This document shows, one piece after another, positions 28,501 through 33,010 of a stretch of DNA of 64,000 bases (positions within the stretch are counted from its first letter, which is position 1; each line of letters opens with the position of its first letter). The translations under genes and the position numbers were made by a program. This DNA is from Flaccisagitta enflata (lineage: Eukaryota): positions 13,392,001 to 13,456,000 of the forward strand of contig OZ231126.1 in the NCBI GenBank assembly GCA_965153355.1, given 5' to 3'. The notes beneath the pieces were generated by a model that saw only the letters and a list, made by a program, of their open reading frames with translations, was not told the origin of the DNA and did no database searches.

Positions 28501-31500
28501 TTGAAATACGTACGAATTCTATCTCTTTTTTTCTTTTTTTTTTTTAAAACAAAATATGGAGAAGTCTTTGAATAAATCTTTGTCCTTGCTCGAAAAAGAT
28601 TTATGAGGTAAACAAGGAACAAACTAATTGAGCAATCTCTGCTTGCAAGTAAACAAAAGTCAACCAGGCTTGGTCACAAAATCGTCGCGGAAGGGTGGAG
28701 GGGGGCGTGGAGGAAATGCTTACTTATATAAAAACAATTCGAAATGACCTTGAAAACGGCCAAAAAAGGTTAAAATGCAACCGACAGACCGACTGAAGGA
28801 CAGAATGACTGACCGACATATAGAGTTATAGACTCCTAGAGTGGCGTGCACGCGACTTAAAAAAATTCAGAGGTCATTTTTTTTTTTTTTTGTGCTGATC
28901 TTGAAAAAATGTTTTTCTATTCTGTAGAGAAAATCGGGAATCGTGCCGAAAGATTTCACACCTTTCAACGCTTCATGGAAAAGACGCTGGAATCCGCGGA
29001 CGAATTTCAAGAAGTTCGCGAAATCATTGGACGCTATGACACACTCAAACAAACTCATGCAGACCTACTGGGGAAACAGGTATGGCACACTCAAACAAAC
29101 TCATGCAGACTTACTGGGGAAGCAGGTATGACACACTCAAACAAACTCATGCAGACTTACTGGGGAAGCAGGTATGACACACTCAAACAAACTCATGCAG
29201 ACTTACTGGGGAAGCAGGTATGGCACACTCTAACAGACTCATGCAAATGTACTGGGGAAGCAGGTATGGCACACTCTAACAGACTCATGCAAATGTACTG
29301 GGGAAGCAGGTATGGCATATTCAAACAAACTCATGCAGACTCACTGGGGAAGCAGGTATGGCACACTCTAACAGACTCATGCAAATGTACTGGGGAAGCA
29401 GGTATGGCATATTCAAACAGACTCATGCAGACCTACTGGGGAAGCAGGTATGGCACACTCCAACAGACTCATGCAAATGTACCCTGTCATGAAATACAAC
29501 TGTAATGAAAGAAGCCTTTATTTTGCTTAAAATTCTCAAAATGAGGAATTTTGTTTTATACCATCTGAAAGCACATAACCTACCATTTTTCCATGCAAAA
29601 TTTCAAAGCACTGGCTCAAGAAGCCAAGGCGGCTTACCTTGTGGGGGACATGTTCGAAGGTAACTGTAACAATTTTAAGCCTTAAAATATCATTTTTGGT
29701 TGTCGCATTTTGACTTGAAAGGAATTATGCAAGTTTGGGTTTTCCTCATACAGTGCGGCTCAAAAAAAAGTTTTAGGTCTTTTACATGATATATTGCAGG
29801 TATTTATAGATAGATCTTAAAAAAATTCATGATAGAATTAAAGAGTTTTAAAAAATGAAGCATATGCCGCTGCTGTCACTATACCAGCTAAACGGTCTTG
29901 AAAGTTTTTTCATATTTGAAGTTGATGTACCAAAAATTCGTTGGGAAAAAAAAAAAACTAATCTCAAAACAAAAAAAATCGAACTGCTTGTTTGTCAGTG
30001 TTTTACATCCAAGCAATGAGAAAAATATAGCAAAAATCCATGACCATTTTGAAGTCAGTGAAAGACCTTTCAAATGAGACCTTGCTGGACAGTCCCAGCT
30101 CTATTGGTTTAGAATGACAGACAAGACGTGGTAAAATACCTGGAAATCTTCATTTTCATGGCTTATCTTTATTCTAATATAAAAGTTAAACGCATTGAGT
30201 TAAAAAAATTTTCTTAGCGCCATTTTGAAGAAAATTTGAAGCTCTTCAATTTGCTTATGGATAAAGAGTAGCTAAGATAATCTTGAGCTGCATCATTGTC
30301 AAAAATGGAAAGACTAAAATTGTTCATTGAAAAAACATGAAATAAGCACTTTTTTCAATCAGTGATTTTTTTCTTCAAACCTTTGCCATTTCTAAACGAA
30401 TAAAGCTACAGTGACCAGCAACATCCCATTTGGAAGATTTTTCGCAGAGCTTTCAAATGGTTATGGATTTTTTATGGTTCTGGCCTACAGTTAAGCAGTT
30501 TAGTGCTTGCCTTCGATGGACTTTAAGGCATTTAGGTGATGAAACCTCAAAAACAGCCTTGCAACTTGTTTTTTTTATTTTGCGCCATTTTTCACTTTCT
30601 AGTCAAACTGTGAAGGTTCATTCAAGTATTGTAGTCTAAATTATAGATGATAAAGAAAAAATAGTTCAAAAGTTATGTCTATTGCTATAAAATAGGATTT
30701 AATACTACCTTTTTTTGAGCCGCACTGTAAACAATTTTTCATATGGAAATTGTTCTAAATTCATGCAAATTGAGTAAAAATGACTAGATTGGGCAAAAAT
30801 ACTTGTTGATATATCTTTTTTTTTGCATTTTTAAAGATTTCTTGATAATTGAAAAAAATTGAGCTAGCATCCAAATATTTTCTAATTCAGAATTTGCTCG
30901 AATTTTCCTAGCAACTTTTTCATTCAAATTCTTGTTGTGGCTAAACCGTTTGAGTTAGAGCTTTGAAATTTTACATGAAAAAATGGTAAATCATGTGCTT
31001 TCAGAGGGTTCAGAGCAAAGTTCTTTACTATAAGTAACGGGTGGTCAAAAAAAAAGTGACTTTTTCATTTTCTCATATCTTTTGTAAAAAAATTTTTTTG
31101 CCAACAAGATATGGTGCAGGAGAATTTTTTTCATTATTATGATTTTTGTACATTTTCTGTATATTTCAAATTATTTACAATAAACTGATTTTAATTTTGG
31201 ACCGCCTTGATTTTTGATGAAAATTTTTTGTAAAAAGATTAAAATTCTTTTATAGATTCACTATTTATAGTTAAGAACGACTCAAAAACTAATAAAAAAC
31301 CTGAGAAAAATTATGAAAATACAAACATATAACAAAACACAAGATACTTCTAAAAAATATCCTTTTCTTTTCTACTCAAATCTCTCAAACAAAAGCTTGG
31401 AGGCTTATAAATAATTGCATTTATTTCAGACGGGAGCTAATAAACATATTTGTTTCTTAAAAACCACTAATTATTTATGTTAAAACTGATTTATGCAAAC

Positions 31501-33010
31501 ATTTTATTTTTTTGTATTTATATAAATATTTGTTTTACAAAATTGAAAAAAAAAATTTTTACATACACTTAACTTCATTTTCAAAATATAAACTCATAAA
31601 AAAAATTTCAAATTTTTTGGAAAAAATTCTAGCTTAGTCACTTTTTTTTTTACCACCCGTTACTTTACACACAATGAAGGTTTCTTTTGTTACAGTTGTA
31701 ACTGATGGAAGGGTACTGGGGAAGCAGGTATGGCATATTCAAACAGACTTATGCAGACCTACTGGGGAAGCAGGTCTGACACACTCTAACAGACTCATGC
31801 AAATGAACCGGGGGAGCAGGCATACTCAAACAGACTAATGAAGACCGATGGAGAAGCCGGTATGGCACAATCTAACAGACTCATGCAAATGTACTGGGGA
31901 AGCAGGTATGGCATATTCAAACAGACTCATGCAGATCTACTGGGGAAGCAGGTATGGCACACTCTAACAGACCTGCTGGGATGCAGGTAAGATTCAAACC
32001 TACACAGAAATGTTGGGGAAACAGGTATGACAAGTGGAACTATACTCAATATGGAAGAGAGCCTTTTGAGCCCTCACTGACACACTAAATCAGACTCACG
32101 TAGAACCAGTGAGAAAACGGGTCTGACACAACCCAATCTCATGCTGACTAAACGATGAAACCGATGCAAGCAAACTGACGCAGACCAGATTGAAAACTAG
32201 TTATAACACATTCAAGCCGACATAATTTTTCTTTCCACAGAATCGTCAGCAAGACGCTTACGAAGGACTGAAACAGGATTTTGTAAAATACAGCGAAGAA
32301 AAAAACAATCTTAATTTGGATTACAACAATCAATTGGCAAAGTTACAAACGAAATTGGATGACTCAAACTCACAAGCAGCCCAATGGGACGCGGAGTGGA
32401 ATCATATCAAAAGCACAGCAGCACACAAAACACTCATGTTGGGTCAGTTTGTATGAAATGAATGCTATTCGAGTTAAGGTGATAAATAAACACGATGATA
32501 TTCATGTGTCATTAACTCGTTATGAAATGATGATGATGATGATGATGATGATGAAATTGGTAACACAGATTGCCAGGGATGATGATGATGATGATGATGA
32601 TGATGATGGTGATGGTGATGGTGATGGTTATGGTGATGATGATGATGATGATGATGATGATGATGATGATGATGATGATGATGATAATGATGATGATGAT
32701 GATGATGATGATGATGATGATGATGATGATGATGATGATGATGATGATGATGATGATGATGATGATGATGATGATGATGATGATGATGATGATGATGATG
32801 ATGATGATGATGATGATGATGATGATGATGATGATGATGATTTATGTTTCAGGCCGTATCAAGATGGCGACCCACAACTTGTTTACTTTGATCACGAAGC
32901 ATCAACCAAAGTTAGGACACAATGTCAATTTGGATGACACAAATGAACAACTTGAACGCATCAAAATGTTCATTCAAGACCTTACTCATATCACCAATGA
33001 AATTCACTAA
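7550..33010 (+). CDS. CCDC42: Coiled-coil domain-containing protein 42 homolog (CCDC42/CFAP73 family), 6 exons, 300 aa
   Basis: Exons 7550-7643, 26428-26582, 27271-27412, 28928-29079, 32241-32442, 32853-33010. All introns GT-AG, phases compatible, 903 nt total. Translation MAVSFEEYFRSTLEDKLIVKMPEREEDHLTPATRLLEKRREMAEVE...KESLLKFDKFLKENDSKRSRA...IIGRYDTL...YNNQLAKLQ...WNHIKSTAAHKTLMLGRIKMATHNLF...QLERIKMFIQDL matches family motifs. AATAAA at about 33297. Confidence 0.92.
18889..19247 (+). repeat. 81-bp G-rich tandem repeat, about 4 clean copies
   Basis: Unit GTGGTGAATGTTGAGATAAGTAATTCTCCTTGATAGGTGGTCATTCTGGGCCAGTGTGATGGTGGTTAGGGGTGGTTAGGG. Confidence 0.95.
20218..20768. mobile_element. MITE with about 40-bp TIRs and TA flanks (Tc1/mariner-pogo type)
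   Basis: CAGTAGATCTCGTCAAGACTTGAGATAACGGGGGCAAGCATT and its near-perfect reverse complement ending 20768. A related right end terminates at about 12629. Confidence 0.85.
22752..26188 (+). repeat. 81-bp G-rich tandem array, about 3.4 kb, in CCDC42 intron 1
   Basis: Same unit as 18889-19247. Period 81 measured at 25981 versus 26062. Clean at the right end, irregularly corrupted elsewhere. Confidence 0.95.
29034..32240 (+). repeat. 46-bp minisatellite derived from the 3' end of CCDC42 exon 4, interrupted by a transposon nest
   Basis: Unit GTATG(G/A)CACACTCAAACAAACTCATGCAGAC(C/T)TACTGGGGAAGCAG. About 10 copies at 29034-29481 and progressively decayed copies from 31714 toward the acceptor at 32240. 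Confidence 0.9.
29482..31713. mobile_element. Nested non-autonomous DNA transposons
   Basis: Outer CCCT...AGGG insert duplicates the TA of a minisatellite unit (atgTA|...|TActgggg). Inside: 29497-31698 (TIR CAACTGTAA-AAAGAA-CCTT, TA flanks), 29751-30727 (TIR CAGTGCGGCTCAAAAAAA, TA flanks), about 31032-31665 (TIR AAGTAACGGGTGGT-An-GTGACT). Confidence 0.8.
32528..32841 (+). repeat. (GAT)n microsatellite in CCDC42 intron 5
   Basis: About 300 bp of GAT repeats ending 11 nt before the exon 6 acceptor; a (GTT)n tract follows in the 3' UTR at 33043-33166. Confidence 0.95.

Follow-up and report, generated by a model that had tools for sequence, protein, structure and literature searches.

How does an intron come to be built from copies of the exon that precedes it? 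This question is raised by intron 4 of the CCDC42 gene on contig OZ231126.1 of the Flaccisagitta enflata assembly GCA_965153355.1. The gene lies within a 64,000-nt stretch (positions 13,392,001 to 13,456,000 of the forward strand), which is referred to as the window and is numbered from its first letter. How new spliceosomal introns originate has long been an open question, for which examples at the sequence level are very scarce, and this locus unites a demonstrably lineage-specific intron, a body of GT/AG-bounded copies of the upstream exon, and sister taxa that share the intron. The original prediction held that the intron was born by tandem duplication of exon sequence and still carries the fossil record of that event. 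Three parts of this claim stood: the lineage-specific gain, the copying from exon to intron, and the derivation of the whole intron outside the transposons from one unit. The link between the copies and the birth of the intron is not established, and the copies probably arrived after the intron did.

The body of intron 4 is an array of exon-end copies

Intron 4 (29080-32240) comprises 20 head-to-tail units of the last 46 nt of exon 4, in register from the donor to the acceptor. The only interruptions are a nested cluster of miniature inverted-repeat transposable elements (MITEs; 29483-31716) and a 45-nt insert (32033-32077); as had been proposed, nearly the whole intron outside the transposons is made of unit copies. 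The features of this region are listed below, where P0003 is the 300-aa product of the gene.

28928-29079, + strand: exon 4, codons 131-181, ending in GGG AAA CAG (tblastn with P0003, splice sites, reconstruction of the coding sequence, CDS)
29034-29079, + strand: exon copy from which the 46-nt unit derives, formed by the final 46 nt of exon 4; it encodes (R)YDTLKQTHADLLGKQ
29080-29482, + strand: proximal array, units U1-U8 and the first 35 nt of U9, with the donor in use at 29080 (Tandem Repeats Finder, TRF; unit table)
29483-31716, no strand given: nested MITE cluster in U9, with a GTAC target-site duplication (inverted repeats I1, I2, I3 and I5)
29749-30729 and 31032-31665, no strand given: inner MITE elements (inverted repeats)
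31717-31951, + strand: distal array, comprising the remainder of U9 followed by U10-U14, at 70-85% identity with the exon copy (TRF, nhmmer)
31952-32221, + strand: decayed units U15-U19 with the start of U20, at 54-74% identity (wrap-around alignment against shuffles, back-translation control)
32033-32077, no strand given: 45-nt fragment of a high-copy element in U17, flanked by a TGACA duplication (sequence, word depth)
32222-32240, + strand: pyrimidine tract and CAG acceptor, the sole part of the intron without significant unit similarity
32241-32442, + strand: exon 5, codons 182-248, starting with AAT CGT CAG (tblastn with P0003, CDS reconstruction)

TRF detects the 46-nt array in two segments: 29035-29475, with 9.6 copies, 91% matches and a score of 679, and 31714-31972, with 5.8 copies and 73% matches. 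Units U1-U9 start with GTATG and each complete proximal unit (U1-U8) ends with GCAG, whereas U9 is split by the MITE nest and has its GCAG end at 31717-31727. A G occupies the first position of all intronic units, including the oldest. TRF and the unit table therefore confirm that the last 46 nt of exon 4 are repeated into the intron as GTATG...GCAG units. Identity to the exon copy is 91-93% in U1-U3, 83-87% in U4-U10, 70-85% in U11-U14 and 54-74% in U15-U20. The predicted rise in divergence toward the acceptor thus holds as a broad trend from 93% to 54% identity and is not monotonic.

The array is a minisatellite by its constant 46-nt period, its identical recent copies and its edge copies of 54-65% identity. 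The sequences of U4, U5 and U7 are identical, as are those of U2 and U3, which argues for recent amplification. Minisatellites are common in the window, with 67 TRF rows at a score of at least 80. A second array of the 46-nt unit was not detected by TRF within the window, and nhmmer outside the intron returned nothing better than E 0.4.

Copying proceeded from the exon into the intron, since the motif RYDTL..TH.DLL, kept in 120 orthologues, is encoded by the exon copy; (R)YDTLKQTHADLLGKQ aligns without gaps to 119 orthologues. The exon has served as a stable template, since the old distal units (U15-U20 region) carry the present exon states A6, C32 and A43. G43 is a derived state of U1-U14, and T32 occurs only in U1-U3. 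The exon differs from U2/U3 at three sites, all synonymous when read in the frame of the exon. A change in the exon itself was considered for these sites and is ruled out for C32 and A43, which are present in the old distal copies; these two differences are derived in the intron copies. The proximal units are mosaic, being exon-like at most sites yet carrying the derived G43 of the array. This pattern points to ongoing exchange with the exon copy, which is under constraint; such exchange could sustain the array over the long term.

The distal similarity was evaluated by wrap-around alignment to the unit against 200 dinucleotide shuffles. The region 31973-32240 scores z 6.0 with no shuffle of 200 reaching the score, and 32166-32240 scores z 3.4 (2/200), whereas four control regions stay at z 1.0 or below. 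A lack of unit similarity in 32080-32240, which the original prediction had named as evidence against itself, was not observed (32121-32240, z 3.3, 2/200). The last copy had also been described as grading into the pyrimidine tract. The last 46 nt of the intron do resemble the last 46 nt of exon 4 (5/500 shuffles), but the last 41 nt alone are not significant against the unit (z 2.0, 12/200) and, by manual count, the final 19 nt (32222-32240) agree with the unit tail at just 8 of 19 positions.

Integrity of the array and its transposon insertions

Tandem repeats are prone to mis-assembly, and Logan unitigs break at the edges of this array. That the array is an artefact of assembly or annotation is nevertheless a negligible possibility. 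Independent contigs of two DNA runs cover parts of it: a contig of run X1 crosses the array/MITE junction (29431-29581) with no differences, and a contig of the marine-metagenome run X2 covers 29329-29450 with two differences. In addition, the exon structure exactly reproduces a transcript product that was assembled independently. The array is no assembly artefact.

The outer MITE has inverted arms of 53 nt and 85 nt and the GTAC duplication, and the two inner elements have terminal inverted repeats of 23 nt (96%) and 30 nt (97%). The flanks of the nest rejoin into a single 46-nt unit (U9). Word depth in the DNA runs is very high within the nest. At the 45-nt insert, it reaches approximately 91,000 in the bin 31994-32112 of run X1, compared with approximately 100-300 in the flanking single-copy bins.

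One X1 contig links 29270 to 31968 at a depth of 79.9, approximately half of the local single-copy depth, and may represent an allele of the array that lacks the MITE nest. At 77.5, the depth of the X1 contig over the array/MITE junction is likewise about half. Run X1 bears the label of the same organism. Its contigs deviate from the window sequence, at full depth, at 28944, 28947 and 29037 in exon 4 and at 32264 and 32268 in exon 5; the sample sequenced in X1 thus does not exactly match the assembled individual or haplotype.

Splice structure of CCDC42

CCDC42 has six exons at 7550-33010 on the + strand, a gene of approximately 25 kb. The four exons that do not flank intron 4 are as follows, each from an exact reconstruction of the CDS.

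7550-7643, + strand: exon 1
26428-26582, + strand: exon 2
27271-27412, + strand: exon 3
32853-33010, + strand: exon 6

The spliced CDS of the six exons equals P0003 exactly, and all five introns are GT..AG. P0003 is encoded on a 1104-nt database contig, which is too short for a 25-kb gene, so P0003 is a transcript product. The junction GKQ/NRQQ (the slash marks the splice site) is present in all five transcript-length members of the 90% cluster of P0003 (P0003, P0124, P0125, P0127 and P0129). Because these proteins read ...DLLGKQ/NRQQ..., the 29079/32241 junction is backed at the level of assembled transcripts. The first donor (29080) is the one used, as read from the five proteins and from the identity of the spliced CDS to P0003.

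The protein belongs to the CCDC42/DUF4200 family, as indicated by full-length similarity to named CCDC42 homologues and by the precomputed listing of PF13863. It is similar to 567 proteins at E ≤0.001, and the best non-self matches are 64% identical over 99-100% of the length. In a single-gene tree, the window protein lies on a long branch amid lophotrochozoan sequences.

No stop codon interrupts the exon 4 frame over 198 codons (28909-29505), a span that takes in nine units and all three of their phases. Splicing from the third decoy donor (after 29217) would yield an in-frame insert of 46 residues that repeats YDTLKQTHADLLGKQ; no product with such an insert is present among the five transcript-length proteins. 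Four open reading frames (ORFs) translated through the array had no exact counterpart in the protein collection.

The position of intron 4 is specific to the lineage

The introns of the window gene follow codon 31 (phase 1), 83 (phase 0), 130 (phase 1), 181 (phase 0) and 248 (phase 1). When exon 5 was searched against 1.84 billion representative proteins, 86 matches were obtained, many of which are ORFs on genomic fragments that run from exon into intron. These fragments were aligned to an orthologue profile, which places their introns on P0003 numbering at 175/176 (sponge-like and tunicate-like), 200/201 (bivalve-like and many others), 185/186, 211/212, 216/217, 230/231, 238/239 and 253. No intron at 181/182 was observed among the ORF fragments of other taxa, and eight read-through fragments (gastropod-, tunicate-, sponge- and bryozoan-like) are contiguous.

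A metagenome scan yielded 78 loci, none of them from the clade of the window, of which 19 are genomic and cover codon 181/182. Not one of these 19 loci, all from other animal groups, has an intron at that site: 16 are contiguous over 177-186, including two distant sequences (L039 and L077), and three break at 185/186. Comparison of orthologues at DLLGKQ/NRQQ, a check proposed together with the original prediction, thus finds no intron there in other taxa, and on this broad sampling the aligned positions indicate that intron 4 is a genuine lineage-specific gain.

Eleven intron positions recur in the loci (19/20, 54/55, 89/90, ~118, 156/157, 175/176, 200/201, 211/212, 230/231, 253/254 and 284/285), which are sponge-, coral-, bryozoan-, mollusc- and tunicate-like. 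None of the five window introns coincides with any of them. By this comparison, the lineage has replaced every CCDC42 intron, a complete turnover of introns in the gene. This signal of wholesale turnover in the lineage of the organism may matter more than the array itself.

Intron 4 could in principle be an old intron that moved. The widely conserved phase-0 intron at 175/176, present in at least seven loci (L025, L026, L043, L044, L045, L049 and L053) and in the sponge-like and tunicate-like fragments, lies exactly six codons upstream of the phase-0 intron of the window. It would have slid 18 nt to 181/182 by a boundary duplication and a shift of both splice sites, leaving the array as a by-product. 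The unit, however, contains the 175/176 site as uninterrupted spliced sequence (...CATGCA/GACCTA...), which indicates that no intron was there when the unit was copied. Furthermore, all five introns are displaced by differing distances and phases, for which loss and regain is a better fit than five slides. Relocation is therefore very improbable.

Several of the new intron positions are located 4-12 codons from an old one (83/84 and 89/90, 181/182 and 175/176, 248 and 253). A second lineage, represented by loci L022, L033 and L047 with proteins like P0110 and P0115, forms a long branch beside the tunicates in the single-gene tree. Its introns are found only at non-conserved positions (14/15, 60/61, ~113, 185/186 and ~261), and one of them measures approximately 45 nt. 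These loci represent an independent wholesale replacement of introns in CCDC42.

Close relatives share the intron, and the units are not detected in their translated fragments

Close relatives are known from short ORFs on genomic contigs, that is, from translations in which exons 4 and 5 are identical to those of the window in amino acid sequence or differ by one residue. Three of these ORFs leave exon 4 directly after ...GKQ: P0130 continues with VP, P0131 with VSTQSRPDP and P0132 with VKSFTKNYSINISAFLKQ... (VKSFTKNYS...), for 61 residues. Three others (P0002, with 40 residues, P0123 and P0126) enter exon 5 before NRQQ from an intron that ends in a CAG codon. Because these ORFs run into and out of an intron at GKQ/NRQQ, the relatives have an intron at the same phase-0 site.

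The read-through peptides were back-translated to degenerate DNA and aligned to the cyclic unit and to the degenerate form of their own exon end, against residue shuffles. No unit similarity was observed with the cyclic unit (z 0.6, 1.0, -1.3 and -1.2, with P0132 at 0.6 and P0002 at -1.3), and no similarity to a copy of the own exon end was observed either (z ≤0.8). In a positive control, the most decayed units of the window were detected in 12 of 15 peptide frames at no more than 1/200 shuffles, so that units as decayed as the oldest ones of the window would have been seen in these fragments. The original prediction had named a phase-0 intron at the same site in outgroups, without the repeat, as evidence against a birth by duplication; such introns occur in the close relatives, with P0132 and P0002 showing no unit similarity in the translated fragments. 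Two peptides, P0131 (VSTQSRPDP) and P0132 (..TKNYS..AFLKQG), were considered as echoes of the unit and rejected, since their anchored back-translations score z 0.24 and 0.49, respectively, and an unrelated control scores z 2.7.

The ends of intron 3 and the starts of intron 5 in the relatives differ completely from those of the window, which indicates that neutral sequence has turned over since the split. The introns of the relatives are otherwise unalignable to the window, and the units are therefore probably younger than the shared intron. The recognisable units (54-93% exon-like) probably postdate the split, while the intron predates it.

Order of intron gain and array growth

We favour, at about even confidence, a history in which an exon-end minisatellite entered an already existing young intron 4. 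We infer the order of events, the slippage mechanism, the conversion from the exon and the tolerance through re-splicing as follows. The young, lineage-specific intron would already have been present in the common ancestor of the species and the sampled relatives. Later, in the lineage of the window, the last 46 nt of exon 4 would have been duplicated in tandem at the exon/intron boundary, probably by slippage in replication at a short match that the donor shares with the unit start (TATG, or GTA in the case of a CGG codon). The duplicate would regenerate a usable first donor, CAG/GTATG. The minisatellite seeded in this manner would have grown to approximately 20 copies, pushing the older copies toward the acceptor, and the earlier intron body would have been lost; MITEs would have inserted into the array afterwards. 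Continued templating by the constrained exon copy may keep the proximal units 91-93% exon-like.

Splicing continues to use the first donor and the single good acceptor. AG/GT occurs at every unit boundary in the array. A product that joins the true donor to an internal AG, or a decoy donor to the true acceptor, could be re-spliced to the correct message, and approximately 14 intact decoy donors might be tolerated because the AG/GT boundaries allow re-splicing without trace.

The alternative, as the original prediction supposed, is that the duplication created the intron, which we regard as possible but doubtful. In the ancestor of the clade, the exon would have read CGG TAT..., and the 46-nt segment bounded by GT...AG (GTATGAC...CAG) would have been duplicated to give one or a few copies. 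The insert would have been spliceable and its removal would have restored the mRNA. The array would then have been renewed from the conserved exon copy in the window and have decayed beyond recognition in the relatives, and a later change of the exon from CGG to CGC would have removed the cryptic donor. The absence of the intron from the 19 loci and the eight read-through fragments is in line with such a birth, as are a non-transposon intron that consists of units in register with a copy boundary exactly at the splice junction, the resemblance of the last 46 nt of the intron to the exon end, and the G that starts even the oldest units. The mosaic proximal units suggest the ongoing exchange with the exon copy that this history relies on, and multi-copy introns of 24-bp units, spanning 2 or 4 duplicates, provide a fission-yeast precedent (cited in PMC4974935).

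The splice signals fit a birth event poorly. The spliced mRNA junction is CAG/AAT rather than AG/GT, the unduplicated message contains no AGGT, and the exon at the unit start reads CGC/TAT, with no GT there now; the AGGT that is expected for birth by duplication is lacking. The unit contains the branch-like motifs CTCAT and CTTAC, and no pyrimidine tract precedes its end, GGGGAA(A/G)CAG. An intron newly formed from units alone would likewise lack such a tract and would end in ...CTGGGGAAACAG (an insert of 46 nt or 92 nt would end in GGGGAAACAG), and the real tract is the sole part of the intron that is not significantly unit-like. The other four introns of the gene each measure at least 410 nt. 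Moreover, the relatives share the intron and show no unit at either end in a test of demonstrated power, and turnover would have had to sustain the array from a time before three or four diverged taxa split off.

Several points weigh against the entry of the array into an existing intron. The copy boundary falls on the splice junction and the unit spans precisely the final 46 nt of the exon, a coincidence estimated at about 1 in 10 to 1 in 20. No non-unit, non-transposon body survives except the last 19 nt, so that the earlier intron must have been deleted; birth by duplication needs the same loss. The introns of the relatives are seen as translations only, over at most 183 nt at the 5´ end and at most 120 nt at the 3´ end, and deeper parts of these introns could contain units. 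Should neutral sequence be saturated among the taxa, the missing units in the relatives would be weak evidence, since they would also be expected under a birth by duplication. In the RNA run X23, of which approximately 6% was sampled, three reads fall on the window, all in the MITE nest and none at splice junctions.

Comparison with known systems

In the model of Rogers (1989) and the vertebrate ATP2A1 case (Hellsten et al., 2011, PMC3265369), a single duplication of an AGGT-containing segment creates the intron and also supplies the pyrimidine tract. The CCDC42 intron resembles that case in that it derives from the adjoining exon (93-54% identity), has AG/GT copy junctions, restores the message upon removal and is absent from its position in outgroups. 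In contrast, the junction here is CAG/AAT without AGGT, the unit is bounded by GT and AG instead of containing them, there are 20 copies rather than one, and the exon now lacks GT. The model also expects duplicate and intron to co-occur on the phylogeny, whereas P0130, P0131, P0132, P0002, P0123 and P0126 have the intron with no detectable copies in the translated parts (at most 183 and 120 nt).

The fission-yeast introns, which extend over 2 or 4 tandem copies of a 24-bp piece of exon and are reported to contain AGGT (Zhu and Niu, 2013, cited in PMC4974935), are similar in that a multi-copy tandem array of a short exon segment is the intron. The present intron differs from those few-copy introns with AGGT in lying in an animal gene, in its length of 3.1 kb, and in having an age gradient, transposons and a separate pyrimidine tract. 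In potato, an RdRp intron was created by a duplication crossing an intron/exon boundary, with reuse of the parental splice signals (Ma, Lan and Niu, 2016, PMC4974935). Both loci have a tandem duplication at a splice boundary that reuses existing signals, and the potato case shows that duplications spanning such boundaries are tolerated. The potato duplication lies at the 3´ boundary and produced an additional intron, whereas at the present locus it lies at the 5´ boundary and, in the favoured history, enlarged an existing intron with decoy donors. No multi-copy animal case was met in the literature on intron gain by tandem duplication; no search was aimed at such arrays, and no claim of absence in print is made.

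The array shares with ordinary intronic minisatellites the head-to-tail units, alternating unit types, identical recent copies, decayed edges and transposon insertions. It differs from them in that purifying selection acts on its seed, a coding exon, in that the splice junction sets its phase boundary and in that every unit carries a consensus-like donor. Recursive splice sites, or ratchet points, are AG/GT sites in long introns. Like these, the unit boundaries pair 3´ and 5´ splice dinucleotides and would regenerate the same donor after splicing. Unlike these, the internal AGs of the array are not preceded by a pyrimidine tract, and the likeness is an analogy that might explain tolerance.

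In the conservative reading, the gene tolerates approximately 14 near-identical decoy donors just downstream of the real one, which makes the locus useful for the study of 5´ splice-site choice. Were the birth reading true, the locus would provide a living animal case, in multiple copies, of an intron created out of coding sequence, within a lineage whose CCDC42 introns have all been replaced. A general route to mass intron gain would be indicated should other introns specific to the lineage also open, elsewhere in this genome, with copies of the end of the preceding exon.

Other introns and repeats of the gene

Direct-repeat tests between exon ends and intron ends of the other four CCDC42 introns gave nothing convincing (15 tests). 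The test of intron 3 reached 2/500 shuffles with an A-rich match, one among the 15.

Intron 5 (32443-32852) is mostly a (GAT)n microsatellite of 88 repeats (32578-32841), and a (GTT)41 run (33044-33166) lies 3´ of the CCDC42 stop codon. Intron 1, 18.8 kb in length, contains three blocks of an 81-nt satellite (18890-19246, 23210-25073 and 25869-26188), which have higher-order periods of 165-464 nt and occupy more than 2.5 kb of the intron.

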